Sequence record: MZ997841.1 | Direction: 5' to 3' (one strand) | DNA length: 46,142 nt | Source of the DNA: Escherichia phage ULINTec7 | Part shown: one piece after another, positions 6,722-46,142 of the stretch | How positions within the stretch are numbered: position 1 is the stretch's first letter | Layout: every line of letters begins with the position of its first letter | Program-made: the position numbers and the translations under genes | Notes under the pieces: generated by a model | The model's database searches: none | Told to the model about the DNA's origin: nothing | Seen by the model: the letters and a program-made list of their open reading frames with translations, nothing else

Positions 6722-7875
6722 ATGGCTATTATTAATAACATCCCATGTCCTCAATGTCAGAAGAATGGACACGATAAATCAGGCAACCACCTTATGATAT
6801 TCGAGGATGGTGCTGGGTACTGTAACCGTGGTCACTTCCATGATAATGGCAGACCTTACTACCATAAGCCTGAAGGGGGCATCGAGATAACCGAGTTGCC
6901 TATTACTGGCAATATCAAATATACACCTTCCCAGTTTAAAGAGATGGAGAAGGAAGGGAAGATTAGCGACCCTAAGCTACGCGCCATCGCACTTGGTGGT
7001 ATGCGTATGAAAGACCGTTGGGAGGTTATGAATGAGCAAGAAAGGGCAGACCAAGAAACAGAGTGGAAACTTGATGTTGAATGGTTCCTCACGCTTAAGC
7101 GTAAGAATCTTGTTTCCCGACACATTCGCGGCGACATTTGCGCATTGTATGATGTACGGGTCGGACACGATGAAGAAGGTAGAGTCTCACGGCATTACTA
7201 TCCACGCTTCGAAAAATGTGAGCTAGTAGGCGCTAAGTGTCGCACATTACCTAAAGACTTTAAGTTTGGTCATTTAGGTAAACTATTTGGTATGCAAGAT
7301 CTTTTCGGTATGAATACTTTGTCTCACGTGTTAGACAAGGGAAGACGAAAGGATTGCTTGCTTATTGTCGGCGGCGAACTGGATGCACTAGCAGCACAGC
7401 AAATGCTCCTTGATTCTGCCAAGGGTACTAAGTGGGAAGGCCAGCCTTACCATGTATGGTCTGTCAATAAAGGTGAGTCTTGCCTTGAAGAGATAGTACA
7501 GAACCGTGAACACATCGCCCAATTTAAGAAGATTATATGGGGTTTTGATGGAGATGAGGTAGGGCAGAAGCAGAATCAGCAAGCGGCTCGCCTGTTTCCT
7601 GGCAAATCCTATATCCTTGAGTACCCTTCTGGTTGCAAAGATGCCAACAAGGCATTGATGGCTGGCAAGGCTAAAGAGTTTGTTGATGCATGGTTTAATG
7701 CCAAGTCATCTGATGAAGTCTTTGGTAGCCAGATTAAATCTATCGCATCTCAAAGGGATAAGCTCAAGGCTGCACGTCCAGAGCAAGGACTATCATGGCC
7801 TTGGCCTAAGCTGAACAAGGTAACGCTAGGTATTCGTAAGAACCAACTTATCATTGTAGGCGCAGGCTCTGGCGT
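6722..7875 (+). CDS. DNA primase-helicase, exon 1 (zinc ribbon, TOPRIM, start of helicase Walker A)
   Basis: CPQC...C..GHFH zinc ribbon and LLIVGGELDALAAQQ TOPRIM resemble T7 gp4. The ORF continues to ...LIIVGAGSGV and then runs into a stop at 7895-7897 within inserted sequence; the proposed exon ends at 7875. Confidence 0.7.
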
Positions 7876-8662
7876 TAACATTAGCGCCGCCATGTAGTAA
7901 TACATGGGCAATAATCGTGTGAACTCAGGGGAAGACTAGAACAGTTAATCCTGAGCCAAGCTAGGCACACCTCAAATTCAAAGGAGGTGTTATGCAATTT
8001 AAAGAAGTACCAGATCACAGTAATTATATTTGTTATGAGAATGGCACGGTTGTTAATCGTAAGACTGGAAAGGTCTTGAAAGAAGATACAACTAACCGAG
8101 GTTATAAGCGGATTACAGTAAGCAAGGGCAACAAGGTAACACGTTGGAGTGTGCACCGTTTAGTTGCTTTACTGTTTATCCCTAACCCTCATAATTATGA
8201 AACTGTTAATCACATATCGGGAGATAAGACGGATAACTCTGTTAGTAATCTTGAGTGGATGAGCCAAGAACAGAACCAAGCCCATGCTAAATATACAGGA
8301 CTGTGTCCTAAAGGTGAGGCTGTTGGCACTAATAAGTTCAAAGAGGCAACTATTCATCAAGTGTGCAAGCTAATAGAGAAAGGTTTATCTCGCGGTGAAA
8401 TTATGAAAGCAACGAGCATCTCTAAAGCAACCTTTGATGACATTCGTAGAAGGAAGACTTGGAAGCACGTATCTTGTTCATATAAATGGTGACAATCTGG
8501 TGTGCCTAGAAGGTGCAACGACTATCCCGAAAGGGAGTACAGCCAAGCGGCTGGAAGCGCACGACACCCATCGTGGGTGATGATATAGTCTGGTCTATAT
8601 GGGGACATATAGCAGTTCATAAGAGAACGGGCGTGGCTTAGCGAACCACGTCGAACATAACG
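7876..8662 (+). mobile_element. Putative group I intron carrying an HNH homing endonuclease ORF, inserted in the helicase Walker A codons
   Basis: The 5' exon ends in U (7875) and the insert ends in G (8662). Exon 3' end GGCGU can pair with intron GCGCC at 7884-7888 (P1 with a U.G wobble). The downstream frame opens right after a stop at 8658-8660 with GKTEF and no start codon. Joining gives the contiguous P-loop GAGSGVGKTEF. Confidence 0.6.
7992..8492 (+). CDS. HNH homing endonuclease (intron-encoded)
   Basis: 166 aa with HRLVALLFIPNP...VNHISGDKTDNSVSNLEW, a typical HNH/AP2-type motif; AGGAGG SD upstream; a paralog of the ORF at 10976. Confidence 0.85.
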   Translation: MQFKEVPDHSNYICYENGTVVNRKTGKVLKEDTTNRGYKRITVSKGNKVTRWSVHRLVALLFIPNPHNYETVNHISGDKTDNSVSNLEWMSQEQNQAHAKYTGLCPKGEAVGTNKFKEATIHQVCKLIEKGLSRGEIMKATSISKATFDDIRRRKTWKHVSCSYKW

Positions 8663-9497
8663 AGGTAAGACTGAGTTCCTTCGTGAAGTAGTTAAGCACC
8701 TCATTGAAGAACACGGTGAATCTGTAGGCATCATTTCTACAGAAGACCCGATGGTCAAGGTGTCCCGTGCTTTTATCGGCAAGTGGATTGATAAGCGTAT
8801 TGAGTTACCGCCAACCAACGACCCGAAAGAAGATGGATACCGTGAGGTGTTCGACTACACCGAGGAAGAAGCTAACGCCGCCATTGATTATGTAGCTGAT
8901 ACAGGTAAGCTGTTTGTGGCTGACCTAGAGGGTGACTATTCGATGGAAAAGGTAGAGCAAACTTGCCTAGAGTTTGAGGCTATGGGCATTTCTAATATCA
9001 TCATTGATAACTTAACGGGGATTAAATTAGATGAGCGTGCTTTTGGTGGGAAGGTTGGTGCACTTGATGAATGCGTCAAGCGGATTGGTACTATCAAAGA
9101 CCGACACCCGGTTACTATATTCCTTGTATCACACCTTACACGTCCTCCGGCAAACCGTACCCAACATGAAGAAGGTGGCGAAGTTATCCTTTCTGACTTC
9201 CGAGGCTCAGGCGCTATCGGATTCTGGGCATCTTACGCCTTGGGGATTGAGCGTAATACAAGAGCTGAAACGCTTGACGAAAGGACTACCACGTACATCT
9301 CATGTGTCAAAGACCGCGACCAAGGTATCTGGACTGGAACCAAGGTCATGCTTAAGGGTGACATTCAAACCGGACGTTTAATGGAACCACAAGCCCGTAC
9401 TAAGTCATTTGATACAGGTGAAGCAAGGCAACAAGAAGTGCCGGATTTACCGGACACTATAGAAGAGACAACCTTTGACGATGAACAGGAGTTTTAA
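8663..9497 (+). CDS. DNA primase-helicase, exon 2 (helicase RecA-like domain)
   Basis: Frame reads GKTEFLREVV... from 8663, through the ORF-track ATG at 8751, to DDEQEF. FLVSHLTRP and SDFRGSGAIGF...LGIERN resemble T7 gp4 helicase motifs. Exon 1 plus exon 2 is 1989 nt, a 662-aa product. Confidence 0.7.
9445..9467 (+). promoter_or_regulatory. Phage-RNAP promoter inside the helicase 3' coding region
   Basis: ATTTACCGGACACTATAGAAGAG matches the consensus. Confidence 0.65.
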
Positions 9498-10878: not shown

Positions 10879-10908
10879 TTTCATCATATTGATTGGAGGA
10901 TTAACTTT

Positions 10909-11016
10909 ATGAATAACTACGACTCTGATTGGGATTTCTACGATTCAATGCAATCTAAACCAGAAAGGAGGGAGGATGAGTTCGAAACAGATCAAATGTA
11001 CGAGGATTTTTACTAA
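10909..11016 (+). CDS. Hypothetical small acidic protein (35 aa)
   Basis: Short ORF that overlaps the start of the HNH gene; weak call. Confidence 0.2.
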   Translation: MNNYDSDWDFYDSMQSKPERREDEFETDQMYEDFY

Positions 11017-11455
11017 CTACATCCTCTACTCTGATGGTCGAGTTCTTAACGAGAAAACCGGACAATATCTAAGAGGTTACTTAGATAAAGATGGGTATCA
11101 TATTATGAATATTAAAGGGAAACACCTTAAAGTTCATCGATTAGTTGCTATCCATTTCATACCTAACCCTAATAATTTACCTGAAGTTAACCATAAAGAT
11201 CATGACCGTCTAAACAATAATGATTGGAATCTAGAGTGGTGTACTCATCAAGATAACAACAAGCATAGCTTACATTTAGTAATAGCTTCTTGTGCTAAAC
11301 GCTATGACTTTATATCACCACAAGGTGTCCATGTAGAAGTCTATAACTTACGTGAGTTTTGTAGGAATAACAACCTACAGCAATCTCATATGGTTAAGGT
11401 GGCTAAAGGTAAAGTAAGACATCATAAAGGTTGGACTAATTATGCTAGATGTTGA
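10976..11455 (+). CDS. HNH homing endonuclease (free-standing)
   Basis: 159 aa with HRLVAIHFIPNP...VNHKDHDRLNNNDWNLEW; AGGAGGGAGG SD; paralog of the intron ORF at 7992. Confidence 0.85.
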   Translation: MSSKQIKCTRIFTNYILYSDGRVLNEKTGQYLRGYLDKDGYHIMNIKGKHLKVHRLVAIHFIPNPNNLPEVNHKDHDRLNNNDWNLEWCTHQDNNKHSLHLVIASCAKRYDFISPQGVHVEVYNLREFCRNNNLQQSHMVKVAKGKVRHHKGWTNYARC

Positions 11456-13988
11456 TTGGAAAGAATTTGGAAAGAATCGCATACTTGTCATGGATGCTGA
11501 AAGTAAAGGTTTACTTGATGCTATCCGATATGGACACCGTGAAGATGTGCATATCATTTGCTGTATGGATTTGCTTACTACCGAGGAGTTTCTCTTCTTT
11601 GACCCGTATGAGATGCGTGACCCTGAAGCAAGAGAACGCCTGAAGGAATGGGAAGGTCATCAAGATGGAACCTTGGTTGACGGTGTTAACTTCCTGAAGC
11701 ACTGTGAGGCTATTGTGTCGCAGAACTTCCTAGGGTATGACGGTCTTCTCTTTGAGAAAGCATTCCCTGATATTTGGAAAGGCTTTAACTATACCGAGAA
11801 GCGCGGTAAGGGCAGACTCCGTGCTGACCTGTGTCCTATCCGTGTTGTAGATACGCTGGTGATGAGTCGTCTGCTAAACCCAGATAGACGCCTTCCTCCG
11901 CAAGCATATGCCAAAGGCATGGGTAACGTCGCCCCTCACTCAATTGAGGCGCACGGCATCCGTATAGGCCGCTATAAACCAGAGAATGAGGACTGGTCTA
12001 AACTAACTGACCACATGGTTCACCGTGTACGTGAAGACGTGGCAATTGGTCGTGACCTTTTCCTATGGCTTTACAACGGAGAGTGGACGGAGCACAAACG
12101 CCGTGGCGTGAATAAACGTACTGGCCTAGGTATTGAGACAGCCTTCCACATGGAGTCCATTGTGGCGCTGGAGATGAGCCGTCAGGCCGAGCGCGGGTTC
12201 CGTCTGGACATCGACAAGGCTTTGTCCCGATGCGAAGAATTGGACGCTAAGATTGACGAGACAGTCGCAGCGTTCCGCCCTCACATGCCTATGCGTATCA
12301 AGTCTAAACCTTTTAAACCGGAAGAAAAGAATGAAGTATGCCAACGCGCAAATGAGTATGGAGCTAGCAACAATATACCTACTGTCCTTGACCCCTCACA
12401 CTTTCTTCATGCCGAGAGACGAGGAGATCGCAAGACAGTATGGAGTGTCACTACTAAGTCTGGTGATTGGTCGGCTAGTGTCAAGAAAGACTTTCCTCAC
12501 CTTAGAGGAAACCGTAATGACACGCCAAGCATCAAGTGGATTGGCGCTTACTCGCCTGTTACTTTCGAAGAGATTCCCTTGGGTAACAGGGATACAGTTA
12601 AGCAAGTGCTCTATGATTATGGATGGAAAGGTGTTGAATTTAACGATACCGAGCAAGCGCATCTCGATGAGCACGGAGTGTTACCCAAACCTTGGAGTGG
12701 TAAGATAAATGAAAAGTCCCTTACTTTATGGCAAGAAAGAGCCGCACGTGAAGGTAAAACAGTCCCTGATTGGTGCTTGGGTATCGCTGCATGGTACATA
12801 CTCGTATCCCGTCGTGGTCAGATACTCAACCGTGGTGACGTTGAAGCCTTCAACGAGAAGGGAACGTGGCCCTCGCAGGCTGGTGTACGAAAGTGTCGCG
12901 GCCTTGTACCTGTAGCATTCAACAAGGAGCTAGGAATCAATGCGCAGCAATACTACGAGAGGTACGGATATTGGCCTACGTCTGACAAAGATGACGGAGA
13001 GTGGCGTGTTCCAGCTGTTGCTATTAGTATTGGCACTTCTACGTTCCGTATGCGTCATCGTAACGTGGTTAATATTCCTGCCCGTGGCTTGTATCCTTTA
13101 CGTGATTTATTCATAGCAGGGAAAGGCAAGCTAATCCTTGGTTGTGACGGTGCAGGTCTTGAACTGCGTGTCCTGTCTCACTTCATGAATGACCCTGAGT
13201 ACCAAGAGATTGTACTGCACGGTGATATTCATACGCATAACCAGATGAAGGCTGGTCTTCCTAAGCGTGATATGGCGAAGACGTTTATATACGCCTTCCT
13301 CTATGGCTCTGGTATAGCCAACCTTGCAGCAGTATGTGGTGTTACTGAGGAGGAAATGAAGGAAGTTGTGGCAAGATTCGAGATTGAACTGCCGTCTCTT
13401 GCACGTCTTCGTGAGAATGTTATCGCACAAGGTAACAAGTTTGGCTACCTGCAAGCACCTGATGGGCATTGGGGTCGCATCCGCATGTCTGGTGGTGAAC
13501 TTAAAGAGCACACTATGCTTAACGTATTACTCCAGATGACTGGCTCTTTGTGTATGAAATATGCATTAGTAAAGGCATTTGCAGTAATGCGCAAGGAAGG
13601 TGTAGCCTTGGATGCTATGGGAAGCCCTTGTGGTGTGGCTAACGTCCACGATGAAATCCAGATGGAAGTTCCTGAAGAAGAGGTCTTGTACCTTAACTAT
13701 GACCTACCTTTCACCTTAGAAGGGTTTGAAACAGAGAAGGCTGCTGTGAAAGCAGTGTTCGATGCAGAAGAGAAACGTGTTCATGTGGATTCTGAAGGAC
13801 GTATGTGGTCTGCTGCAAACCTCGTTAGTGTTGATGCTGATGCTGGTGTACTTCATTGTCAGCGCCGTTATCACCGTGCTGGGCATATCATTGCCGACGC
13901 CATGACTTGGGCTGGTCAGTATCTGAAGATGCGTTGCCCGATGGCAGGAGAATATAAGATTGGCACAAGTTGGAAGGAAACACACTGA
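11442..13988 (+). CDS. DNA polymerase (family A, T7 gp5-like)
   Basis: N-terminal exo motif ILVMDAESKG resembles T7 MIVSDIEAN; GCDGAGLELRVLSHF, GDIHTHNQ...AKTFIYAFLYG and HDEIQ polymerase motifs. Start is uncertain between 11442 and 11490. Confidence 0.93.
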   Translation: MLDVDWKEFGKNRILVMDAESKGLLDAIRYGHREDVHIICCMDLLTTEEFLFFDPYEMRDPEARERLKEWEGHQDGTLVDGVNFLKHCEAIVSQNFLGYDGLLFEKAFPDIWKGFNYTEKRGKGRLRADLCPIRVVDTLVMSRLLNPDRRLPPQAYAKGMGNVAPHSIEAHGIRIGRYKPENEDWSKLTDHMVHRVREDVAIGRDLFLWLYNGEWTEHKRRGVNKRTGLGIETAFHMESIVALEMSRQAERGFRLDIDKALSRCEELDAKIDETVAAFRPHMPMRIKSKPFKPEEKNEVCQRANEYGASNNIPTVLDPSHFLHAERRGDRKTVWSVTTKSGDWSASVKKDFPHLRGNRNDTPSIKWIGAYSPVTFEEIPLGNRDTVKQVLYDYGWKGVEFNDTEQAHLDEHGVLPKPWSGKINEKSLTLWQERAAREGKTVPDWCLGIAAWYILVSRRGQILNRGDVEAFNEKGTWPSQAGVRKCRGLVPVAFNKELGINAQQYYERYGYWPTSDKDDGEWRVPAVAISIGTSTFRMRHRNVVNIPARGLYPLRDLFIAGKGKLILGCDGAGLELRVLSHFMNDPEYQEIVLHGDIHTHNQMKAGLPKRDMAKTFIYAFLYGSGIANLAAVCGVTEEEMKEVVARFEIELPSLARLRENVIAQGNKFGYLQAPDGHWGRIRMSGGELKEHTMLNVLLQMTGSLCMKYALVKAFAVMRKEGVALDAMGSPCGVANVHDEIQMEVPEEEVLYLNYDLPFTLEGFETEKAAVKAVFDAEEKRVHVDSEGRMWSAANLVSVDADAGVLHCQRRYHRAGHIIADAMTWAGQYLKMRCPMAGEYKIGTSWKETH

Positions 13989-35900: not shown

Positions 35901-36223
35901 CTTTTGGCGCTATGGGTATGATGAGTACAACTGCTGTGTTCAGCTTAGGTGGAGACTTCTTAGGCGGCCTAGGTGTTCTCCCTTCTGAGTTAGTACAATC
36001 CCGTTATGAGGCTGGCTTTCAGACTAAGGGTTTGATAGACCAAATACCACTAGTAGGTGTTGGTCAAGATGCATATCGTTTAGCAGATTCTATAACTAAA
36101 TATGCAGAGGGTGATACAGAAGGTGTAGATGTGGCACGTAGGGCTTTACGCTTAGTGCCTCTAACTAATGTAATAGGAATCCAGAACGCATTGCGTTATG
36201 GCTTAGATGAACTGGAGGATTGA
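32915..36223 (+). CDS. Large internal virion protein (gp16-like)
   Basis: 1102 aa, called by position and size. Confidence 0.65.
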   Translation: MEQDINTNWAGYVQSTPEPFSIEAAPVSAPTIRQRNELQEQVLEAKADADIIGAVGAAFQNEWLAFGGKRWYDRATADFTPQPDFEIQPEQREALRFKYGTDMMQTITEGVRSEDELNFRIQNADEDLERNKRIAQAGWAGSVATIGAAVLDPVGWVASIPTGGAAKVGLVGRAVRGAIAAGVSNAAIESVLVQGDMTRDLDDIMVALGSGMAMGGVIGAVARGRAAKLSDQGDDRAASVVRSADAGDRYIRAVADDSIGAMRVKGEEVLTEGAFDISSKGEDLLKTLQREGNSIDMAPRRWAGTLSALGTVVHSSQDASVRGLGARLFESPQGLGAQKASASLMQNTNLNRLKSADMNRFNDGFDLWLKENNINPVAGHTNSHYVQQYNEKVWEAVRIGMNESTPKSIRMAAEGQQAMYREALALRQRSGEAGFEKVKADDKYMPDIFDSMKARRQFGMHDKEDIIELFSRAYQNGSRKVPKEVADDIARAQVNRVVDATLTGRMSFEKAMSGQTKAEYEAIMRKAGFSDEEIEKMVEALDNKETRDNISNRAKMSLGLDVTQEYNGIRMRDFMNTNVEELTDNYMKEAAGGAALARQGFSTYQAALNAIDLVERNARNATKDTKAHAQFEAESANIRQSEPDYKKAQEKIEELKKRLKLKEKDEAAGLAIDEEIRQMREGLRLIMGKSIDADPQALSTKMLRRGRDITGVLRLGQMGFAQLGELANFMGEFGIAATTIALGKQFRFTSKALRSGDGFFRDKNLAEVERMVGYIGEDNWITTKGARPDEFGDVTTVRGMMAHFDQSMNSIRRAQTNLSLFRMAQGSLERMTNRQIALSFIDHLEGKKIIPQKKLEELGLTQGFMTNLQKHYDANSKGSGLLGFDTMPYAMGETLANAIRRKSGLIIQRNFIGDEGIWMNKALGKTFAQLKSFSLVSGEKQFGRGIRHDKIGLAKKTAYGFALGSIVYAAKAYVNSIGREDQDEYLEEKLSPKGLAFGAMGMMSTTAVFSLGGDFLGGLGVLPSELVQSRYEAGFQTKGLIDQIPLVGVGQDAYRLADSITKYAEGDTEGVDVARRALRLVPLTNVIGIQNALRYGLDELED

Positions 36224-37185
36224 TGAGTTATACTTTCACAGAACATATAGCCAACGGTACGCAAGTAACCTATCCCTTTAGCTTTGCTGGTAGGGATAAA
36301 GGTTATCTTCGTGCCTCAGATGTGATAGTGGAATCTCTTCAAGGTAACACTTGGATTGAGGTTACATCTGGCTGGCAACTAACTGGCACGCACCAGATTA
36401 CTTTTGATGTAGCACCAGTTGCAGGTTTGAAGTTCCGTATTCGAAGGGAAGTACAAAAGGAATATCCATACGCTGAGTTTGACCGTGGTGTTACCTTGGA
36501 TATGAAGTCTTTAAATGGTTCTTTCATTCATATACTGGAGATTACACAGGAGTTACTTGACGGGTTTTATCCAGAAGGGTACTTCATTAAACAGAATGTA
36601 AGCTGGGGCGGCAATAAGATTACTGATTTGGCTGATGGCACAAATCCGGGAGATGCAGTAAATAAAGGGCAGCTTGATGCCGTTGACAAGAAGCATACAG
36701 ATTGGAACACCAAACAGGATATTGAGATTGCTGGCCTTAAAGCAGGTATGACTTCTGGTATTGCGCACAGAACTATCCCTTGGTACACGATCGCCCAAGG
36801 AGGTGAGGTTTCCGTAAAACCTCCTTATGAATTTCAAGATGCACTAGTTTTCCTTAATGGGGTCTTGCAACACCAAATCGTAGGCGCATACTCTATAAGC
36901 AGCAACACTATCACTTTCGCAGAGCCACTTGTGGCTGGCACAGAGGTGTATGTGCTGGTTGGTAGTCGTGTGGCTACATCTGAACCTAATATTCAGTTAG
37001 AGTTGAACTTTGACTTAGTAGAAGACCAACAAGTAGTACAGATTGGCTCTGCATTTAAGTACATTGAGGTCTACCTTGATGGATTATTACAACCTAAACT
37101 TGCTTATCAGGTAGACGGTGACATTGTTACTTTCTCAGAAAGAGTACCAGAATGCCGGATGACTGCTAAGATTATCACAGCATAA
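36223..37185 (+). CDS. Tail fibre N-terminal-domain protein (tailspike adaptor)
   Basis: N-terminus TQVTYPFSFAGRDKGYLRASDV resembles the T7 gp17 N-terminal tail-attachment domain. The ORF-track start at 36220 is a TTG. Confidence 0.6.
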   Translation: MSYTFTEHIANGTQVTYPFSFAGRDKGYLRASDVIVESLQGNTWIEVTSGWQLTGTHQITFDVAPVAGLKFRIRREVQKEYPYAEFDRGVTLDMKSLNGSFIHILEITQELLDGFYPEGYFIKQNVSWGGNKITDLADGTNPGDAVNKGQLDAVDKKHTDWNTKQDIEIAGLKAGMTSGIAHRTIPWYTIAQGGEVSVKPPYEFQDALVFLNGVLQHQIVGAYSISSNTITFAEPLVAGTEVYVLVGSRVATSEPNIQLELNFDLVEDQQVVQIGSAFKYIEVYLDGLLQPKLAYQVDGDIVTFSERVPECRMTAKIITA

Positions 37186-37672: not shown

Positions 37673-39570
37673 TGGCTAAGGCAAGAGAATCACAAGCGGA
37701 GGCTCTTGCCAGATGGGAGATGCTACAGGAGTTACAGCAGACCTTTCCCTATACAGCGGAAGGTTTGCTTCTCTTTGCAGATACAGTTATCCATAACTTG
37801 ATTGCAGGCAACCCTCATCTGATTCGTATGCAGGCTGATATCTTGAAGTTCCTATTCTACGGACATAAGTATCGCCTCATCGAAGCGCCTCGTGGTATCG
37901 CTAAGACAACACTATCAGCAATCTATACGGTATTCCGTATTATCCACGAACCGCATAAGCGTATCATGGTTGTATCCCAAAACGCTAAGCGAGCAGAGGA
38001 AATCGCTGGTTGGGTGGTGAAAATCTTCCGTGGCCTAGACTTCCTTGAGTTTATGCTGCCGGATATCTACGCAGGGGACCGTGCATCCGTTAAAGCATTT
38101 GAGATTCATTACACCCTACGTGGTAGTGATAAGTCTCCCTCTGTATCCTGTTACTCAATCGAAGCAGGTATGCAGGGTGCTCGTGCTGATATTATTCTAG
38201 CGGATGACGTAGAGTCGATGCAGAATGCTCGTACGGCAGCGGGCCGTGCCTTGCTTGAGGAACTGACTAAGGAGTTTGAATCTATCAACCAGTTTGGGGA
38301 TATCATTTACCTTGGTACGCCTCAGAACGTAAACTCTATCTACAACAACCTACCTGCTCGTGGCTACTCTGTTCGTATCTGGACTGCACGTTACCCCTCA
38401 GTGGAGCAGGAGCAATGCTATGGTGACTTCCTTGCACCTATGATTGTGCAGGATATGAAGGACAACCCCGCACTTCGCTCTGGTTATGGGTTGGATGGTA
38501 ATAGTGGTGCACCTTGTGCCCCTGAAATGTATGATGATGAAGTCCTGATTGAGAAGGAAATCTCTCAGGGTGCAGCTAAGTTCCAGCTTCAGTTCATGCT
38601 TAACACTCGCATGATGGATGCAGACCGCTACCCACTACGCCTGAACAACCTCATCTTCACCTCATTTGGTACAGAGGAAGTCCCTGTGATGCCTACGTGG
38701 AGCAATGACTCCATCAACATCATCGGTGATGCACCGAAGTATGGCAATAAGCCTACAGACTTCATGTATAGACCTGTGGCTCGCCCGTATGAATGGGGTG
38801 CTGTTACACGCAAGATTATGTATATTGACCCTGCTGGTGGTGGTAAGAATGGTGACGAAACAGGCGTGGCTATAGTCTTTCTGCACGGCACATTCATTTA
38901 CGTGTATCAGTGCTTCGGTGTGCCAGGCGGATACCGTGAATCGTCCCTGAATCGCATTGTGCAGGCCGCAAAGCAGGCGGGTGTTAAAGAGGTATTCATT
39001 GAGAAGAACTTTGGTCATGGCGCGTTTGAGGCCGTTATAAAGCCATACTTTGAACGAGAGTGGCCTGTAACTCTGGAAGAGGATTACGCCACAGGACAGA
39101 AAGAGTTGCGTATCATTGAGACGCTGGAGCCACTCATGGCGGCGCACAGGCTCATCTTCAATGCCGAGATGGTCAAGTCTGACCTTGAGTCAGTACAGCA
39201 CTATCCACTTGAACTACGCATGTCCTACAGCCTTTTCAATCAAATGTCGAACATCACGATTGAGAAGAACAGCCTCCGGCACGATGACCGCTTAGACGCT
39301 CTGTATGGCGCTATACGGCAATTAACTTCTCAGATAGACTATGACGAGGTTACACGGATTAATCGCCTCAGAGCGCAGGAGATGCGCGATTACATCCATG
39401 CTATGAACACACCTCACCTCCGTAGGGCGATGCTCTATGGAGATTATGGCACTGAGCGAAGAGTAACCAACACTTCCGTGGCTATGCAGCAAAGAGTGTA
39501 CGGTCAGAATTACAGGAGTAAATCGGCCAACCGAAATACACTTTCTGCAAGGATTTCAAGGACTTATTAA
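37669..39570 (+). CDS. Terminase large subunit
   Basis: 633 aa; ATPase and nuclease region with IILADDVES; position and size match T7 gp19. Confidence 0.85.
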   Translation: MMAKARESQAEALARWEMLQELQQTFPYTAEGLLLFADTVIHNLIAGNPHLIRMQADILKFLFYGHKYRLIEAPRGIAKTTLSAIYTVFRIIHEPHKRIMVVSQNAKRAEEIAGWVVKIFRGLDFLEFMLPDIYAGDRASVKAFEIHYTLRGSDKSPSVSCYSIEAGMQGARADIILADDVESMQNARTAAGRALLEELTKEFESINQFGDIIYLGTPQNVNSIYNNLPARGYSVRIWTARYPSVEQEQCYGDFLAPMIVQDMKDNPALRSGYGLDGNSGAPCAPEMYDDEVLIEKEISQGAAKFQLQFMLNTRMMDADRYPLRLNNLIFTSFGTEEVPVMPTWSNDSINIIGDAPKYGNKPTDFMYRPVARPYEWGAVTRKIMYIDPAGGGKNGDETGVAIVFLHGTFIYVYQCFGVPGGYRESSLNRIVQAAKQAGVKEVFIEKNFGHGAFEAVIKPYFEREWPVTLEEDYATGQKELRIIETLEPLMAAHRLIFNAEMVKSDLESVQHYPLELRMSYSLFNQMSNITIEKNSLRHDDRLDALYGAIRQLTSQIDYDEVTRINRLRAQEMRDYIHAMNTPHLRRAMLYGDYGTERRVTNTSVAMQQRVYGQNYRSKSANRNTLSARISRTY

Positions 39571-39590
39571 TTACTGGACACTATAGAAGG
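39567..39590 (+). promoter_or_regulatory. Phage-RNAP promoter
   Basis: TTAATTACTGGACACTATAGAAGG. Confidence 0.8.
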
Positions 39591-39690
39591 AAGGCCCAGA
39601 TAATAAGAGAAATAACAAGGATAATATAGGTTAACCTAGGTTATATAGGTATGCCTTAGTATGGGTGTACTCCTGTACACCCTATTCCTT
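39591..39690. promoter_or_regulatory. AT-rich repeat region related to the 6353-6500 origin-like element
   Basis: Shares the 12-mer GGTTATATAGGT (39639-39650 and 6415-6426) plus ATAGGTTA and CCTAGG motifs; palindrome GGGTGTAC-TCCT-GTACACCC at 39663-39682. Confidence 0.4.
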
Positions 39691-39728: not shown

Positions 39729-40007
39729 ATGTCTAATAGTTATAGCACACAACCCCTTACAGGTAAGTCTGCTCGTAAGCAGATACAACCTGTGAGTGAA
39801 GCCCTGATGCTTCCTGTAGTTTACGAGGACACTGTTGAGAAGAAAGGTGATGTTATTAATGATGCCACCAAATCAGGTAAGCAGAAAGGAGCCATGGTGT
39901 GTCTTGATACACATGATACACTGGTTATTGCTATCGCAGTTGATGGCAAAGAAGATTCCAATTGGCTGACCACGTTATTAGCGGTCACGACTATTACCCC
40001 AGCTTAA
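39729..40007 (+). CDS. Hypothetical protein, paralog A of a tandem pair
   Basis: 92 aa; shares MSN..., LKKK.D.IN, SGKQKG.MV, IAIA and TP.A with the next ORF. Confidence 0.55.
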   Translation: MSNSYSTQPLTGKSARKQIQPVSEALMLPVVYEDTVEKKGDVINDATKSGKQKGAMVCLDTHDTLVIAIAVDGKEDSNWLTTLLAVTTITPA

Positions 40008-40019
40008 GAGGAGAATTAC

Positions 40020-40307
40020 ATGTCTAATTATGGAAACGCAGGTACTGTTACTGGTCAAGCTTTTCGAGTAAAAACTGTACAAACCACTGCAACGGCAATC
40101 CCTTTGCCTATTGTTGCTGAAGCAGACCTTAAGAAGAAAGATCACCCTATCAACATTAAACACCTATCTGGCAAACAGAAAGGCTCCATGGTTGCTGTAG
40201 AGAAAGCAGACAACTCCTTGTACATCGCTATTGCACGTGGTAGTGAACCAACTGACCCTTGGGATGCAACCACTATGGAGACGGAACCTGTAACACCTGT
40301 AGCTTAA
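40020..40307 (+). CDS. Hypothetical protein, paralog B of a tandem pair
   Basis: 95 aa; see paralog A. Confidence 0.55.
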   Translation: MSNYGNAGTVTGQAFRVKTVQTTATAIPLPIVAEADLKKKDHPINIKHLSGKQKGSMVAVEKADNSLYIAIARGSEPTDPWDATTMETEPVTPVA

Positions 40308-40798: not shown

Positions 40799-40931
40799 GT
40801 CTAAGAAGGTTGTAGGTGCACTGGTTGCACTTGTTATTGCTCTTGTTTCTGTAGGTCTTGGTGTAGACCTTGGCTCTGGCACGGAATCCTCTGTGACAGA
40901 TGTGGTCTGCCAAGTGATTACCTGTGAATAA
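40782..40931 (+). CDS. Small membrane protein (49 aa), lysis-associated candidate
   Basis: N-terminal basic stretch then transmembrane segment VVGALVALVIALVSVGLGV; GGGAG SD. Confidence 0.35.
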   Translation: MKKLFKSKKVVGALVALVIALVSVGLGVDLGSGTESSVTDVVCQVITCE

Positions 40932-41145
40932 GTTTCTAGAAGTGCTGGCAGGTCTTATTGGCCTGCTTGTCTCTGCTAAGAAGAAACAAGAAGAGAAGGA
41001 GGCACAAAGTGAAGCGAATCATGTTAGTGACAATCCTGCTGATTGGTTCGCTGACCACTTCCGGGTGTCAGCAGGCGTTACCAGAGAAAGCAATGGTGAA
41101 ACCTCTGAGGCCGACGCTGACGGAAGTTTACGAGGTAGACGATAA
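40924..41145 (+). CDS. Candidate i-spanin-like membrane protein
   Basis: GTG start; N-terminal transmembrane segment FLEVLAGLIGLLVSA then a charged region; contains an out-of-frame embedded ORF. Confidence 0.3.
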   Translation: MNKFLEVLAGLIGLLVSAKKKQEEKEAQSEANHVSDNPADWFADHFRVSAGVTRESNGETSEADADGSLRGRR

Positions 41146-41218
41146 GGTCTGCTTTAGTAAGCCTGACGCTACAAAATTAGGTTTGTATATTCTTTCGCTA
41201 GAACGCGGATATAATTAA
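40958..41218 (+). CDS. Candidate o-spanin-like lipoprotein overlapping the previous ORF
   Basis: Signal-like region ending in lipobox-like LTTSGC. Start uncertain between 40958 and the internal ATG at 41021. Confidence 0.35.
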   Translation: MACLSLLRRNKKRRRHKVKRIMLVTILLIGSLTTSGCQQALPEKAMVKPLRPTLTEVYEVDDKVCFSKPDATKLGLYILSLERGYN

Positions 41219-41247
41219 TACATAGCTTTATGTATCAGTGTCTTACG

Positions 41248-41270
41248 ATTTACTGGACACTATAGAAGAG
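41248..41270 (+). promoter_or_regulatory. Phage-RNAP promoter upstream of the tailspike genes
   Basis: GATTTACTGGACACTATAGAAGAG. Confidence 0.8.
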
Positions 41271-41349
41271 GTAAGATAGCGCCGTTCTTTTGAGCGGCCT
41301 ATTACTAGCCAATCTTCATAGGGAGGGTTGGAAAGTAATAGGAGATAGC

Positions 41350-43248
41350 ATGGCTAAATTAACCAAACCTAATACTGAAGGAATCTTGCATAAAGGACAA
41401 TCTTTGTATGAGTACCTTGATGCGAGAGTTTTAACATCAAAGCCATTTGGTGCTGCAGGTGACGCCACTACTGATGATACGGAGGTTATAGCTGCTTCAT
41501 TAAACTCTCAGAAAGCTGTCACAGTCTCAGATGGTGTATTCTCTAGCTCTGGTATTAATAGTAATTACTGTAACTTAGACGGTAGGGGTAGTGGCGTGCT
41601 AAGTCACCGTTCCAGTACAGGTAATTACTTAGTATTTAACAATCTACGTGCAGGTCGCTTAAGTAATATTACGGTAGAAAGTAATAAGGAGACTGATACA
41701 ACTCAGGGGCAGCAGGTATCTCTTGCTGGTGGAAGTGATGTTACTGTAAGTGACGTTAACTTCTCAAACGTTAAAGGTACTGGTTTCAGTTTAATCGCAT
41801 ACCCTAATGATGCGCCACCTGATGGACTTATGATTAAAGGCATTCGAGGTAGCTATTCCGGCTATGCTACTAATAAGGCAGCAGGATGCGTACTTGCTGA
41901 CTCCTCAGTTAACTCACTCATAGATAACGTCATTGCTAAGAACTACCCTCAGTTCGGAGCAGTAGAGTTGAAAGGTACAGCCAGTTACAACATAGTCAGT
42001 AATGTTATAGGGGCAGATTGCCAGCATGTAACTTACAACGGCACTGAAGGGCCAATAGCCCCTTCTAATAACCTTATCAAGGGGGTGATGGCTAATAACC
42101 CTAAGTATGCAGCGGTTGTTGCAGGCAAAGGAAGTACGAACTTAATCTCAGACGTGCTAGTAGATTACTCAACTTCTGATGCTAGGCAGGCTCATGGTGT
42201 TACCGTAGAAGGGTCTGATAACGTCATAAATAATGTGCTTATGTCAGGATGTGATGGTACTAACTCTTTAGGACAAGGGCAGACTGCTACAATTGCACGC
42301 TTTATAGGTACAGCTAATAACAACTATGCGTCTGTATTTCCTAGCTACAGTGCTACAGGTGTTATTACTTTCGAATCCGGCTCTACCCGTAACTTCGTAG
42401 AGGTAAAGCACCCTGGCAGGAGAAACGACCTTCTCAGTTCTGCTAGTACTATTGACGGTGCAGCTACTATTGACGGCACTAGTAATAGTAACGTAGTGCA
42501 CGCACCTGCCTTAGGGCAGTACATAGGTAGTATGTCAGGCAGGTTCGAATGGCGGATTAAGTCCATGTCACTCCCTTCAGGAGTTCTTACTTCTGCTGAT
42601 AAGTACAGAATGCTTGGAGATGGTGCTGTGTCATTAGCTGTAGGTGGGGGCACTTCTTCTCAAGTTCGCCTATTTACTTCTGATGGTACTTCTCGGACAG
42701 TGGCCTTCACCAACGGTAACGTGCGTCTTTCTACCAGTAGCACAGGCTATTTGCAGTTAGGTGCTGATGCAATGACCCCAGATAGTACTGGTACATACGC
42801 ATTAGGTTCCGCCAGTCGAGCATGGTCTGGCGGTTTTACTCAAGCAGCATTCACTGTTACCTCAGATGCTCGGTGTAAAACAGAACCTCTTACTATCTCA
42901 GATGCCTTACTGGATGCTTGGTCTGAAGTTGACTTTGTGCAGTTTCAGTATTTGGATCGGGTTGAGGAGAAGGGTGCAGACTCAGCTAGATGGCACTTTG
43001 GTGTCATCGCTCAGCGAGCTAAGGAAGCTTTCGAACGTCACGGCATAGATGCACACCGCTATGGCTTCTTGTGCTTCGACAGTTGGGATGCTGTATACGA
43101 GGAAGATGCCAATGGCTCTCGTAAGCTGATTACACCAGCAGGTTCCCGCTACGGTATTCGTTACGAGGAAGTACTGATATTAGAGGCTGCATTGATGCGG
43201 CGGACTATTAAGCGTATGCAGGAAGCACTAGCTGCCCTTCATAAGTAA
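41350..43248 (+). CDS. Tailspike 1: beta-helix polysaccharide depolymerase-like protein with C-terminal intramolecular chaperone domain
   Basis: 632 aa from the ATG at 41350 (AGGAG SD). Repetitive Gly/Ser/Thr/Asn/Val-rich beta-helix-like sequence. C-terminus SDARCK...GIRYEEVLILEAA is homologous to the endosialidase C-terminus. Confidence 0.7.
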   Translation: MAKLTKPNTEGILHKGQSLYEYLDARVLTSKPFGAAGDATTDDTEVIAASLNSQKAVTVSDGVFSSSGINSNYCNLDGRGSGVLSHRSSTGNYLVFNNLRAGRLSNITVESNKETDTTQGQQVSLAGGSDVTVSDVNFSNVKGTGFSLIAYPNDAPPDGLMIKGIRGSYSGYATNKAAGCVLADSSVNSLIDNVIAKNYPQFGAVELKGTASYNIVSNVIGADCQHVTYNGTEGPIAPSNNLIKGVMANNPKYAAVVAGKGSTNLISDVLVDYSTSDARQAHGVTVEGSDNVINNVLMSGCDGTNSLGQGQTATIARFIGTANNNYASVFPSYSATGVITFESGSTRNFVEVKHPGRRNDLLSSASTIDGAATIDGTSNSNVVHAPALGQYIGSMSGRFEWRIKSMSLPSGVLTSADKYRMLGDGAVSLAVGGGTSSQVRLFTSDGTSRTVAFTNGNVRLSTSSTGYLQLGADAMTPDSTGTYALGSASRAWSGGFTQAAFTVTSDARCKTEPLTISDALLDAWSEVDFVQFQYLDRVEEKGADSARWHFGVIAQRAKEAFERHGIDAHRYGFLCFDSWDAVYEEDANGSRKLITPAGSRYGIRYEEVLILEAALMRRTIKRMQEALAALHK

Positions 43249-43255
43249 GCAACAG

Positions 43256-43285
43256 GCAGTGCGCAAGCACTGCTTTTCGCGCAAC
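43256..43285 (+). terminator. Putative intrinsic terminator between the tailspike genes
   Basis: Stem GCAGTGC / GCACTGC with loop GCAA, followed by TTTTCGCGCAACTTTTC. Confidence 0.5.
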
Positions 43286-43333
43286 TTTTCTTAAAGGTTA
43301 TCATGATGGTAGCCTTTCAGAAAAGGAGGTTAC

Positions 43334-45769
43334 ATGATTCAAAGACTAGGTTCTTCATTAGTTAAATTCAAGAGTAAGATAGCGGGTGCAATCTGGCGCA
43401 ACTTGGATGACAAGCTCACCGAGGTTGTATCTCTTAAGGACTTTGGGGCCAAAGGTGATGGTAAGACTAACGACCAAGATGCAGTAAATGCAGCGATGGC
43501 TTCAGGTAAGAGAATTGACGGTGCTGGTGCTACTTACAAAGTATCATCTTTACCTGATATGGAGCGGTTCTATAATACACGCTTCGTATGGGAACGTTTA
43601 GCGGGTCAACCTCTTTACTATGTGAGTAAAGGTTTTATCAATGGTGAACTCTATAAAATCACGGATAATCCTTATTACAATGCTTGGCCTCAAGACAAAG
43701 CGTTTGTATATGAGAATGTGATATATGCACCTTACATGGGTAGCGACCGTCACGGTGTTAGTCGTCTGCATGTATCATGGGTTAAGTCTGGTGACGATGG
43801 TCAAACATGGTCTACTCCAGAGTGGTTAACTGCCCTGCATCCAGATTACCCTACAGTGAACTATCATTGTATGAGTATGGGTGTATGTCGCAACCGTCTG
43901 TTTGCCATGATTGAAACACGTACTTTAGCCAAGAACGCACTAACCAATTGTGCATTGTGGGACCGCCCCATGTCTCGTAGTCTGCATCTCACTGGTGGTA
44001 TCACTAAAGCTGCAAATCAGCGATATGCAACAATACATGTACCAGATCACGGACTATTCGTGGGTGATTTTGTTAACTTCTCTAACTCTGCGGTAACAGG
44101 TGTATCAGGTGATATGGCTGTTGCAACTGTAATAGATAAGGACAACTTCACGGTTCTTACACCTAACCAGCAGACTTCAGATTTGAATAACGCTGGAAAA
44201 AGTTGGCACATGGGTACTTCTTTCCATAAGTCTCCATGGCGTAAGACAGATCTTGGTCTAATCCCTCGTGTCACAGAGGTGCATAGCTTTGCTACTATTG
44301 ATAATAATGGCTTTGTTATGGGCTATCATCAAGGTGATGTAGCTCCACGAGAAGTTGGGCTTTTCTACTTCCCTGATGCTTTCAATAGCCCATCTAATTA
44401 TGTTCGTCGTCAGATACCATCTGAGTATGAACCAGATGCGTCAGAACCATGCATCAAGTACTATGACGGTGTATTATACCTTATCACTCGTGGCACTCGT
44501 GGTGACAGACTTGGAAGCTCTTTGCATCGTAGTAGAGATATAGGTCAGACTTGGGAGTCACTAAGATTTCCACATAATGTGCATCATACTACTTTACCGT
44601 TTGCTAAGGTAGGAGATGACCTTATTATGTTTGGTTCAGAACGTGCAGAAAACGAATGGGAAGCAGGTGCACCAGATGATCGTTACAAGGCATCTTATCC
44701 TCGTACCTTCTATGCACGATTGAATGTAAACAAATGGAATGCAGATGATATTGAATGGGTTAACATCACAGACCAAATCTATCAGGGTGACATTGTGAAC
44801 TCTAGTGTAGGTGTAGGTTCTGTTGTAGTTAAAGACAGCTACATTTACTATATCTTTGGTGGTGAAAACCATTTCAACCCAATGACTTATGGTGACAACA
44901 AAGATAAAGATCCATTTAAAGGCCACGGACACCCTACTGATATATACTGCTATAAGATGCAGATTGCAAATGACAATCGTGTATCTCGTAAGTTTACATA
45001 TGGTGCAACTCCTGGTCAAGCTATACCTACTTTCATGGGTACTGATGGTGTTCGTATTATCCCTGCTCCACTTCACTTAGCAGGAGAGGTGGTTGCAGCA
45101 GATATTACTGTCGAACATCTTACCCTGAAGGCAAGTACAAGTGCTGATATTCGCTCAGAGATGCTGATGGAAGGTGAGTATGGGTTTATTGGTAAAACTA
45201 TACCAACGGATAACCCGACAGCCCAACGTGTTATCATATCTGGTGGAGATGGTACAGCAGCAGATAAAGGTGCGCAAATTACCTTACACGGAGCAGGTTC
45301 TAGTACCTCTAGACGCGCAGTATATAATGCCAATGAGCACTTGTTCCAAAGTGGGGCCATTATGCCATACAATGATAACGTGTACCCTGCTGGCGGTCCT
45401 CGTAATAGATTCACTACTATCCACCTTACAAGTGACCCTATTATTACGTCTGATGCCACTCATAAGTACGGCTCACAAGGTATTGATGAGCAAGTACTAA
45501 AGGCATGGGGTAAGGTTTACTTCAAGCAGTACAAGTTGATTGGCGAGATGTCTCGTGGTGTACATCACACTCACTTTGGTGTATTGGCACAAGATATTGT
45601 AGCTGCTTTTGCATCCGAAGGGTTAGATGCAATCGACTTCGGCATTGTCTCCTTCGAAGAAGGTCAGTTTGGTGTTAGATATAGTGAAATCTTAATCTTG
45701 GAAGCTGCCTATACTCGCTATCGTCTTGATAAATTAGAGGAGATGTATGCCGCTAATAAAATCAGTTAA
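43334..45769 (+). CDS. Tailspike 2: endosialidase-like (endo-N-acetylneuraminidase) with C-terminal intramolecular chaperone domain
   Basis: 811 aa. Two Asp-box motifs, SGDDGQTW and SRDIGQTW. N-terminal DFGAKGDGKTNDQDAVNAA. C-terminal TSDATHK...GVRYSEILILEAA chaperone-like region. AAGGAGG SD. Confidence 0.8.
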   Translation: MIQRLGSSLVKFKSKIAGAIWRNLDDKLTEVVSLKDFGAKGDGKTNDQDAVNAAMASGKRIDGAGATYKVSSLPDMERFYNTRFVWERLAGQPLYYVSKGFINGELYKITDNPYYNAWPQDKAFVYENVIYAPYMGSDRHGVSRLHVSWVKSGDDGQTWSTPEWLTALHPDYPTVNYHCMSMGVCRNRLFAMIETRTLAKNALTNCALWDRPMSRSLHLTGGITKAANQRYATIHVPDHGLFVGDFVNFSNSAVTGVSGDMAVATVIDKDNFTVLTPNQQTSDLNNAGKSWHMGTSFHKSPWRKTDLGLIPRVTEVHSFATIDNNGFVMGYHQGDVAPREVGLFYFPDAFNSPSNYVRRQIPSEYEPDASEPCIKYYDGVLYLITRGTRGDRLGSSLHRSRDIGQTWESLRFPHNVHHTTLPFAKVGDDLIMFGSERAENEWEAGAPDDRYKASYPRTFYARLNVNKWNADDIEWVNITDQIYQGDIVNSSVGVGSVVVKDSYIYYIFGGENHFNPMTYGDNKDKDPFKGHGHPTDIYCYKMQIANDNRVSRKFTYGATPGQAIPTFMGTDGVRIIPAPLHLAGEVVAADITVEHLTLKASTSADIRSEMLMEGEYGFIGKTIPTDNPTAQRVIISGGDGTAADKGAQITLHGAGSSTSRRAVYNANEHLFQSGAIMPYNDNVYPAGGPRNRFTTIHLTSDPIITSDATHKYGSQGIDEQVLKAWGKVYFKQYKLIGEMSRGVHHTHFGVLAQDIVAAFASEGLDAIDFGIVSFEEGQFGVRYSEILILEAAYTRYRLDKLEEMYAANKIS

Positions 45770-45896
45770 GCAATCTGCTGTACGCCAGAACACAGAAGAA
45801 CCCATTCAATCAGGACGTGACCCTAAGCAGGCTCATGCCATTGCAAAGGATGTACAACGTCGTGCCTTGAATAAACCTTCTGCATCTTCTGCTTAA
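45747..45896 (+). CDS. Hypothetical small protein (49 aa)
   Basis: Hand-translated ORF overlapping the endosialidase stop; weak call. Confidence 0.2.
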   Translation: MPLIKSVKQSAVRQNTEEPIQSGRDPKQAHAIAKDVQRRALNKPSASSA

Positions 45897-45904
45897 GCAG
45901 GTTA

Positions 45905-46030
45905 ATATCTTAGTGTACACAAGGGCAGACTTAGGTTTGCTCTTAGTGTCCTCAAAGGAGGTTGTAGGTATGTTATCGTTGTTGTGTATACTAAGTGATG
46001 TCCTAGGTCGTAAGAGGTACATTCTTAGTG
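45905..46030. repeat. Right-end copies of the CTTAGTG short repeat
   Basis: TCTTAGTG at 45908-45915, 45941-45948 and 46023-46030; ACTTAGG at 45929-45935; an inverted copy CTAAGTG near 45991. Confidence 0.6.
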
Positions 46031-46142
46031 AAGACCAAATAAGGGACGAGAAGATACGGAGGTCGCTCACAAAGTAACCAAAGTCAAAATTTTGATACAG
46101 GCGTGTGTGAGGTGTCTCGCCCTCGCCCTCGCCGGGTTGTCC

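Follow-up and report, generated by a model that had tools for sequence, protein, structure and literature searches.

Tandem tailspike genes of Escherichia phage ULINTec7: a predicted K5 lyase and K1 endosialidase, each ending in an S74 chaperone domain

Two consecutive large reading frames at the right end of the genome of Escherichia phage vB_EcoP_K1-ULINTec7 (ULINTec7; GenBank MZ997841, 46,142 bp; published in Viruses 2021, PMC8541614) raise the question of which host capsules this phage attacks, and of how the two encoded proteins would be expressed, matured, and attached to the tail. The window refers below to the whole stretch of 46,142 nt that was analyzed. An earlier note on this DNA had described two consecutive ORFs of 632 and 811 aa, and both the sizes and the coordinates (41350-43248 and 43334-45769) were borne out. 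The module as a whole is as follows:

41350-45769, plus strand: tailspike module at the right end of the genome, tandem lyase and endosialidase genes

The genome is that of a Vectrevirus, and its whole late region is collinear with those of K1-5 and AAPEc6. We assign a probability of roughly 0.95 to the reading that the module specifies the apparatus by which a K1-5-type Vectrevirus adsorbs to its host and destroys the receptor: a K5 lyase and a K1 endosialidase, encoded in tandem, which would be chaperone-cleaved and adapter-docked. This dual K1/K5 tailspike system of ULINTec7 is already known, and the finding is correct but ordinary, because growth of the phage on K1 as well as K5 strains has been published; the same paper names the K5 lyase and the endosialidase (PMC8541614). 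The paper gives no account of the two chaperone domains or their cleavage sites, nor of the promoter, the inter-spike junction, or the PK1A-type C-terminus. The only addition of the present analysis is that the stalk and chaperone of the endosialidase are of the PK1A type and not of the K1E/K1-5 type.

The first gene was assigned as follows:

41350-43248, plus strand: K5 (heparosan) lyase tailspike, 632-aa precursor (2x3h, K1-5 gp46 identity, UCR91919.1)

The longest form of this ORF opens at TTG 41290, but the predicted start is ATG 41350, because of an AGGAG ribosome-binding site and the agreement with K1-5 gp46. The protein matched PDB 2x3h (KflA of coliphage K5A, a beta-helix lyase whose enzymatic activity has been characterized) with E=0 over aa 1-505, showing only seven differences in the 505 aa (N8K, L99P, A101T, E114A, G310R, A452S, and F453L, with the ULINTec7 residue first). 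PDB 9vvr was likewise matched with E=0, and the lyase body and chaperone of KflA and 9vvr are near-identical to those of the ULINTec7 lyase. The 9vvr protein is the 843-aa K5-lyase tail spike of T7-like phages, and it differs by an extra N-terminal region of ~240 aa, which we take to be a direct tail anchor, whereas the ULINTec7 lyase uses a separate adapter instead. Amino-acid identity with K1-5 gp46 was 98.6%, and the gene showed ~98% nucleotide identity to K5A kflA, VEc3, and K1-5 (98.2% to kflA Y10025). The exact protein sequence is UCR91919.1, deposited as 'K5 lyase'. These matches support the prediction that tailspike 1 is a K5 heparosan lyase, in agreement with the beta-helix depolymerase and K5 lyase that had been proposed for it.

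For the second gene, the assignment and its motifs are given below:

43334-45769, plus strand: endo-N-acetylneuraminidase (K1 polysialic acid endosialidase) tailspike, 811-aa precursor (Pfam, endoNF structures, UCR91920.1)
43787-43810, plus strand: first endosialidase Asp-box, aa 152, SGDDGQTW (motif S-x-D-x-G-x-T-W)
44531-44554, plus strand: second endosialidase Asp-box, aa 400, SRDIGQTW (same motif)

Four endosialidase Pfam domains were found at full length, PF12218 End_N_terminal (120.6 bits), PF12217 End_beta_propel (738 bits), PF12195 End_beta_barrel (157 bits), and PF12219 End_tail_spike (278 bits), which correspond to an N-terminal extension, a six-bladed beta-propeller into which a beta-barrel is inserted, and the stalk of the tailspike. 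The endoNF structures 3gvl and 1v0e matched with E=0 over aa 38-705. The K1F endosialidase has the catalytic triad Glu581/Arg596/Arg647 (PMC2955717), and Glu371, Arg386, and Arg437 of the ULINTec7 protein align with these residues when the endoNF chain index is offset by 240, a value inferred from the chain end at Thr910. The exact sequence is UCR91920.1, deposited as 'endo-N-acetylneuraminidase'. Both Asp-boxes were present in the protein for which they had been reported, and the assignment of tailspike 2 as a K1 endosialidase with predicted catalytic Glu371, Arg386, and Arg437 is supported. Its domain set, triad, and S74 chaperone are as in K1F endoNF (1v0e, 3gvl, and 3gw6). In contrast, the N-terminus of endoNF is a long T7 gp17-type anchor, whereas that of the ULINTec7 endosialidase is only a short adapter-docking peptide.

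The published plating results agree with two active enzymes. The efficiency of plating of ULINTec7 was 0.94-1.45 on three K5 (kfiB+) strains, and the phage plated productively on many K1 strains (PMC8541614), which bears out the recognition of two capsule types suggested by the earlier note. These data bear also on whether one spike is functional and the other a decaying relic, comparable to the truncated gp46 of K1E, so that the phage would have a single specificity. In K1E-type relatives, the place of the lyase is taken by a remnant of 111 aa, which has only the N-terminal peptide in common with the lyase, and the loss of one spike therefore does happen in the lineage. However, neither ULINTec7 ORF is truncated, the lyase shares 98.6% of its residues with active enzymes, the endosialidase retains its triad-matching residues and both Asp-boxes intact, and the published efficiency of plating is ~1 on K5 and K1 strains alike (PMC8541614); we consider a relic spike very improbable.

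The C-termini of the two proteins were then compared. The predicted released domains are as follows:

42862-43245, plus strand: lyase intramolecular chaperone domain, Ser505-Lys632, 128 aa (PF13884, 3gud, 3gw6)
45449-45766, plus strand: endosialidase intramolecular chaperone domain, Ser706-Ser811, 106 aa (PF13884, 3gw6)

PF13884 Peptidase_S74 scored 55.9 bits at aa 505-565 of the lyase and 34.9 bits at aa 706-763 of the endosialidase, above the gathering cutoff of 22 in both cases. An alignment of the two C-termini spans 156 columns with 28% identity (E=3e-18). The earlier note had described a shared, homologous C-terminal domain of about 150 aa; the homology held, whereas the sequences are diverged rather than identical, and the size did not hold for the released chaperones, of which the endosialidase copy is the short one. 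Some 25-45 aa of the ~150-aa homologous stretch belong to the mature stalk. The lyase chaperone matched PDB 3gud (2e-24) and 3gw6 (5e-22), with Ser505 at the position of S911A in 3gw6 and Lys510 at endoNF Lys916; the endosialidase chaperone matched 3gw6 (1e-22), with Ser706 and Lys711 at the same two positions. A conserved Ser, which the aligned C-termini had been expected to reveal, was thus found in both proteins as part of a Ser-x4-Lys dyad with Thr before the Ser: T504-S505-DARC-K510 in the lyase and T705-S706-DATH-K711 in the endosialidase. The dyad and the preceding Thr are common to the S74 domains of endoNF, the GA-1 neck appendage (3gud), and T5 pb1 (4uw8), and the homology with these relatives reaches the last triple-beta-helix strands.

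Structural work places the cut in S74 domains at the Thr|Ser bond, directly before the conserved Ser, and attributes it to Ser/Lys catalysis (PMC4690869). The predicted self-cleavage sites in ULINTec7 are Thr504|Ser505, with Ser505 and Lys510 as catalytic residues, and Thr705|Ser706, with Ser706 and Lys711. The chain of 2x3h stops at Ser505 of the lyase alignment, the mature endoNF structures stop at the Thr aligned with endosialidase Thr705, and a review table gives K1-5 gp46 as 67 kDa, processed to a mature form of 52 kDa. Both ULINTec7 spikes presumably cleave themselves, and the proposed likeness to the self-cleaving chaperone of endosialidases agrees with the Pfam scores and the conserved dyad. 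Upstream of the cleavage site, endosialidase Arg692 aligns with the Arg of the endoNF NRF motif, a putative folding sensor, and the spacing of Arg692 and Asp681 from the Ser (−14 and −25) equals that of T5 pb1. Arg490 of the lyase was one column off the endoNF Arg in the ungapped alignment.

Next, we analyzed the sequences that would govern expression of the two genes:

41248-41270, plus strand: SP6/K1-5-type phage RNA polymerase promoter, exact match to the genome's own consensus
43249-43333, plus strand: inter-spike junction, 85 nt, two hairpins in conserved sequence

The consensus ATTTACTGGACACTATAGAAGAG occurs eight times in the window, always on the plus strand, with 0 copies expected from shuffles. 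The copy at 41248-41270 lies 30 nt 3' of the spanin ORF and 80 nt 5' of the lyase ATG, and the search across the whole window gave no match in the junction between the spike genes. This arrangement agrees with the single promoter previously placed ahead of both genes and suggests that the genes are co-transcribed from it. In the junction, hairpin 1 (43254-43275) has a GCAA loop and is followed by UUUU, hairpin 2 spans 43285-43325, and the hairpins reach the GGAGG ribosome-binding site of the endosialidase gene. The RNA fold of −36.7 kcal/mol corresponded to z=−5.8 against shuffles. The junction is near-identical in K1-5, AAPEc6, and VEc3, and K1E keeps 67 nt of it. Hairpin 1 with its UUUU could attenuate transcription between the spike genes.

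The attachment of the spikes involves an adapter gene and two N-terminal peptides:

36223-37185, plus strand: adapter protein, K1-5 gp37 homologue, 320 aa (PF03906, 7y22_e, gp37 cluster)
41350-41370, plus strand: lyase docking heptapeptide MAKLTKP, exact match to the published sequence (PMC6872550)
43334-43366, plus strand: endosialidase docking undecapeptide MIQRLGSSLVK, exact match to the published sequence (PMC6872550)

The adapter contains PF03906 Phage_T7_tail at aa 3-153 (27.5 bits, cutoff 25.2), matched PDB 7y22_e ('tail adaptor protein') with E=3e-81, and shares a 90% cluster with K1-5 gp37 (AAR90079.1). The adapter sequence, like those of the two spikes, is exactly the one deposited for ULINTec7. 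The literature describes the N-terminal domain of this adapter as T7 gp17-like and as its anchor to the tail, with one docking site for each of the two tailspikes, and MAKLTKP of spike 1 and MIQRLGSSLVK of spike 2 are the published adapter-docking peptides (PMC6872550). The same docking geometry probably applies in ULINTec7.

Based on these features, we propose the following mechanism. The single late phage-RNAP promoter would transcribe both tailspike genes in tandem. Each spike would trimerize with the aid of its own C-terminal S74 chaperone domain, which would then cut itself off by Ser/Lys catalysis; the scissile bonds would be Thr504|Ser505 (lyase) and Thr705|Ser706 (endosialidase). Once mature, the trimers would dock via MAKLTKP and MIQRLGSSLVK on two different adapter sites at the tail, so that each tail position would have one K5 lyase and one K1 endosialidase. 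Whichever enzyme fits the host capsule would open a path through it for the virion as far as the outer membrane, which would account for the dual K1/K5 host range. The gene structures, homologies, conserved catalytic and cleavage residues, promoter, junction, and adapter were computed here. The analysis found no evidence that contradicts the two-spike explanation.

The comparison with relatives placed the module among dual-spike phages. K1-5 (gp46/gp47/gp37) and AAPEc6 have the same gene order, the same lengths of 632 and 811 aa, the same junction and promoter position, and also the same docking peptides and adapter; the K1-5-type dual architecture named in the earlier note is therefore present. 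The region is a mosaic: the lyase block (40900-43300) is nearest to AAPEc6, VEc3, and K1-5, the backbone is nearest to ULINTec6, an isolate of the same study, and the 3' third of the endosialidase gene is PK1A-type. Such a pattern would also be expected if the assembly had joined a K5-type and a K1-type phage, isolated together, into a chimeric module. However, K1 and K5 strains alike supported plating of the purified stock (PMC8541614), the arrangement of the genes, of the 85-nt junction, and of the flanking sequence is that of the independently sequenced K1-5 and AAPEc6, and the breakpoints lie at conserved cassette borders, as natural recombination predicts. A chimeric assembly is thus hardly credible.

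Heparosan, of which the K5 capsule consists, is the precursor of heparan sulfate. That the lyase spike mainly binds mammalian heparan-sulfate-like glycans for mucosal retention, and does not serve K5 infection, is the least credible alternative: one paper ties a K5-lyase-like tail fibre to mammalian glycan targeting, but such binding would come on top of K5 infection instead of replacing it, and among the sister isolates only ULINTec7 plates productively on K5 strains (PMC8541614), so that retention of the lyase gene is sufficiently explained. The tandem K5 lyase and K1 endosialidase reading has little significance beyond confirmation; it is a textbook case of host range widened by two capsule depolymerases on one adapter. 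The residue-level annotation may aid the engineering of ULINTec7 or its depolymerases for therapy, where the cleavage sites, docking peptides, promoter, hairpin junction, and PK1A-type stalk and chaperone would be useful.

The origin of the mosaic was considered from the endosialidase alignments. Over aa 1-572, the enzymes of K1-5 and AAPEc6 are 98-100% identical to that of ULINTec7, whereas aa 573-811 (distal stalk and chaperone) show 62-73% identity to K1-5, AAPEc6, and K1E but 93-97% to PK1A. The PK1A endosialidase (EF507428) has 97.2% amino-acid identity over the whole length. The ULINTec7 module is therefore a different mosaic from that of K1-5, because its endosialidase stalk and chaperone are PK1A-type. 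In addition, the ULINTec7 backbone has ~92% nucleotide identity to K1-5 and carries homing-endonuclease insertions of ~1.3 kb, which K1-5 lacks. At even odds, the dual-spike module arose as a separate recombinant and not by direct descent from K1-5 or AAPEc6, with the lyase cassette placed in a K1E/ULINTec6-like backbone and endosialidase aa ~573-811 swapped as a unit. If so, a unit of stalk end plus S74 chaperone would recombine independently of the catalytic domain. In such a recombinant, the lyase cassette would run from the codons for the docking peptide to the hairpin junction.

The analysis confirmed the dual tailspike module observed in an earlier note, a K5 lyase followed by an endosialidase, and its interpretation was supported. 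Two large plus-strand ORFs were found, running from 41290 (the most upstream possible start) to 43248 and from 43334 to 45769. The TTG at 41290 was ruled out as the lyase start; the ATG at 41350 has a ribosome-binding site, AGGAG, upstream of it and agrees with gp46 of phage K1-5 and with the KflA crystal structure 2x3h. The product from this ATG is 632 aa and that of the second ORF is 811 aa, the sizes that had been read from the sequence. Both Asp-boxes reported for the second protein were located, SGDDGQTW at residue 152 and SRDIGQTW at residue 400, and the C-terminal strings quoted in the note were found in both proteins. A 49-aa ORF (45747–45896) overlaps the 3′ end of the endosialidase gene by 23 nt and has no Pfam match; its homologues in K1-5, AAPEc6, and ULINTec6 are annotated as a hypothetical protein (gp48).

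Next, the identity of each enzyme was analyzed; solved structures are available at 90–99% identity. The body of the 632-aa protein matched no Pfam family. It aligned with the solved K5 lyase KflA (crystal structure 2x3h; E = 0), from which 7 of 505 residues differ, and it was 98.6% and 98.3% identical to K1-5 gp46 and the AAPEc6 lyase, respectively; its gene shared 98% nucleotide identity with those of VEc3, K5A (kflA), and K1-5. Because of these matches, the first enzyme, whose identity the note had inferred, is a K5 lyase. The exact protein is deposited as UCR91919.1 under the label 'K5 lyase'. The solved tail spike 9vvr (843 aa) aligned with residues 31–632 of the lyase; over this range 9vvr and the protein cluster members P0003 and P0010 (843 aa; vB_EcoP-PM139 and vB_EcoP-R1) share a near-identical K5 lyase body and chaperone. 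The lyases of vB_EcoP-PM139 and vB_EcoP-R1 carry an additional N-terminal region of ~240 aa, presumably a T7-type anchor, these phages presumably being T7-like; if so, one lyase module is mounted on two attachment architectures.

The 811-aa protein showed full-length matches to the Pfam families End_N_terminal, End_beta_propel (738 bits), End_beta_barrel, and End_tail_spike, and also matched Peptidase_S74. Solved K1F endosialidase structures aligned with residues 38–705 (E = 0), so that the proposed homology to endosialidases, carried by four endosialidase-specific families and these structures, held. The active-site triad of the K1F enzyme is Glu581/Arg596/Arg647 (PMC2955717), and the aligned positions are Glu371, Arg386, and Arg437. 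The protein is identical to UCR91920.1, labelled 'endo-N-acetylneuraminidase'. It was 97.2% identical to the PK1A enzyme along the entire length, whereas residues 573–811, comprising the distal stalk and chaperone, were just 62–73% identical to K1-5, AAPEc6, and K1E. The nucleotide similarity profile switched to PK1A-type sequence at about 44950–45700.

Both C-termini matched PF13884 (Peptidase_S74, 'chaperone of endosialidase'; gathering score 22), with 55.9 bits for the lyase and 34.9 bits for the endosialidase, and also the solved chaperone domains of the K1F endosialidase endoNF (3gw6) and the GA-1 neck appendage (3gud). The two domains were 28% identical over 156 columns (E = 3e-18). Thus, the claim of a shared domain of about 150 aa stood as to homology, but at 28% identity 'shared' does not mean identical. 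Ser505 of the lyase and Ser706 of the endosialidase occupy the Ser911 position of 3gw6, where that structure has Ala, and Lys510 and Lys711 aligned with its Lys916. In the structural paper on T5 pb1, the scissile bond is Thr|Ser, the Ser departs with the chaperone, and an Arg of the neighbouring chain in the last beta-helix turns is the folding sensor. Cleavage is predicted from the alignment at Thr504|Ser505 in the lyase and at Thr705|Ser706 in the endosialidase, with predicted release of chaperones of 128 and 106 aa, shorter than the length that had been given; the ~150-aa figure arises because the homology runs 25–45 residues upstream into the mature stalk. The endoNF Arg aligned with Arg692 of the endosialidase, and Arg490 of the lyase was one column away in an ungapped alignment.

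Attachment to the tail was also analyzed. A 320-aa ORF (36223–37185) contains the T7 tail-fibre N-terminal domain, matched a solved 'tail adaptor protein' at 3e-81, fell into one 90% identity cluster with K1-5 gp37, and is exactly UCR91909.1 of ULINTec7. K1-5 gp46 is bound to the adapter via the heptapeptide MAKLTKP and gp47 via the undecapeptide MIQRLGSSLVK (PMC6872550). Both peptides are unchanged at the N-termini of the ULINTec7 lyase and endosialidase.

Two features were recorded with regard to the expression of the two genes.

41248–41270, plus strand: phage promoter 23-mer ATTTACTGGACACTATAGAAGAG, exact copy
43249–43333: 85-nt junction between the genes, two hairpins, minimum free energy −36.7 kcal/mol, z = −5.8

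At up to three mismatches, ATTTACTGGACACTATAGAAGAG had eight copies in the window, all on the plus strand, compared with none in 100 shuffles. It is the SP6/K1-5-type phage promoter and resembles that of SP6. As had been described, it lies ahead of both tailspike genes, and no copy was found between them. Scans of 40900–46142 for sigma-70 promoters and intrinsic terminators gave sites no more numerous than in shuffled sequence; their sole match in the junction was called on the minus strand, as the scan requires five T and the T-run on the plus strand is only four long. Junction hairpin 1 (43254–43275) is followed by UUUU, and hairpin 2 reaches the GGAGG of the endosialidase gene. We infer that both spike genes are co-transcribed from the single promoter, possibly with modulation by the hairpins. 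The junction is nearly the same in K1-5, AAPEc6, and VEc3, and 67 nt of it are kept in K1E; the second spike of VEc3 is an unrelated 567-aa protein. When 851–1253 of the K1E sequence L006 was compared with the junction, K1E gp46 (111 aa) had only the MAKLTKP start in common with the lyase. We read the stop codon of K1E gp46 as the counterpart of the hairpin 1 loop (GTAA in K1-5, GCAA in ULINTec7), which would be consistent with a deletion that fused the junction to the 5′ part of a spike gene.

The whole window was collinear with Vectrevirus genomes. In a phage collection without ULINTec7, the best whole-region matches were 92–96% identical, and both spike genes occurred together only in K1-5 and AAPEc6. 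The feature is already known for this exact genome: the 46,142-bp sequence (MZ997841) was placed in Vectrevirus, and HHpred assigned an endosialidase and a K5 lyase (PMC8541614). In that study, ULINTec7 lysed three K5 strains with an efficiency of plating of 0.94–1.45, where its sister phages gave no infection, and it also plated on many K1 strains. Dual K1/K5 plating was thereby published with the outcome the earlier note predicted, and therefore the plating experiment it proposed has already been done. Three alternatives, namely that one spike is a relic or inactive, that the dual module is an assembly chimera, and that host-glycan binding is the primary role of the lyase, are disfavoured because the sequences are intact, the genome is collinear with phages that were sequenced independently, and the host range has been published.

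What the present analysis adds to the dual-tailspike reading is the PK1A-type endosialidase C-terminus and the borders of the lyase cassette. Similarity to the sister isolate ULINTec6 ended 26 nt into the lyase gene, right after the docking-peptide codons, and restarted 10 nt ahead of the lyase stop codon, where the conserved junction begins. These two points are the borders of the exchangeable cassette. Thus, the mosaic structure of the ULINTec7 module differs from that of the K1-5 module, in line with the modular exchange known for the spike genes of this group.

When searched for repeats, the window showed no second terminal repeat, and no direct repeat of at least 40 nt joined its ends (1–300 versus 45960–46142); therefore, the deposited sequence appears to hold one terminal-repeat copy at most. 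The alignment with K1-5 ended ~200 bp short of the end of the K1-5 record.

Other features of the window were also observed. An insert of ~790 bp (7876–8662), not present in K1-5, divides the primase/helicase gene into the ORFs 6722–7897 and 8751–9497 and contains an HNH_3 homing-endonuclease ORF (7992–8492). Rfam gave no match in the window at gathering thresholds; a group I intron (RF00028) scored 37.2 bits (E = 1.3e-7) at 8329–8612 in the insert, below the gathering score of 50. ULINTec6 has the same split, labelled phage intron. A second HNH_3 endonuclease ORF (159 aa; 10976–11455) lies directly 5′ of the DNA polymerase gene (11442–13988) and overlaps its start, in a stretch (~10905–11451) with no K1-5 counterpart. 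Three direct repeats of ~62 nt in the early region (1244–1880; 61–77% identical, spacing 312 and 263 nt) have the core GCTCTTTAACAATCTGG in common and may be early regulatory elements. Downstream of a promoter-like site (39569–39591), the tandem paralogous ORFs 39729–40007 (92 aa) and 40020–40307 (95 aa) were 38% identical (E = 2e-15), and neither had a Pfam match. In RefSeq, the homologous proteins of K1-5, AAPEc6, and VEc3 carry the name 'acetyl-CoA acetyltransferase', a label that appears spurious.
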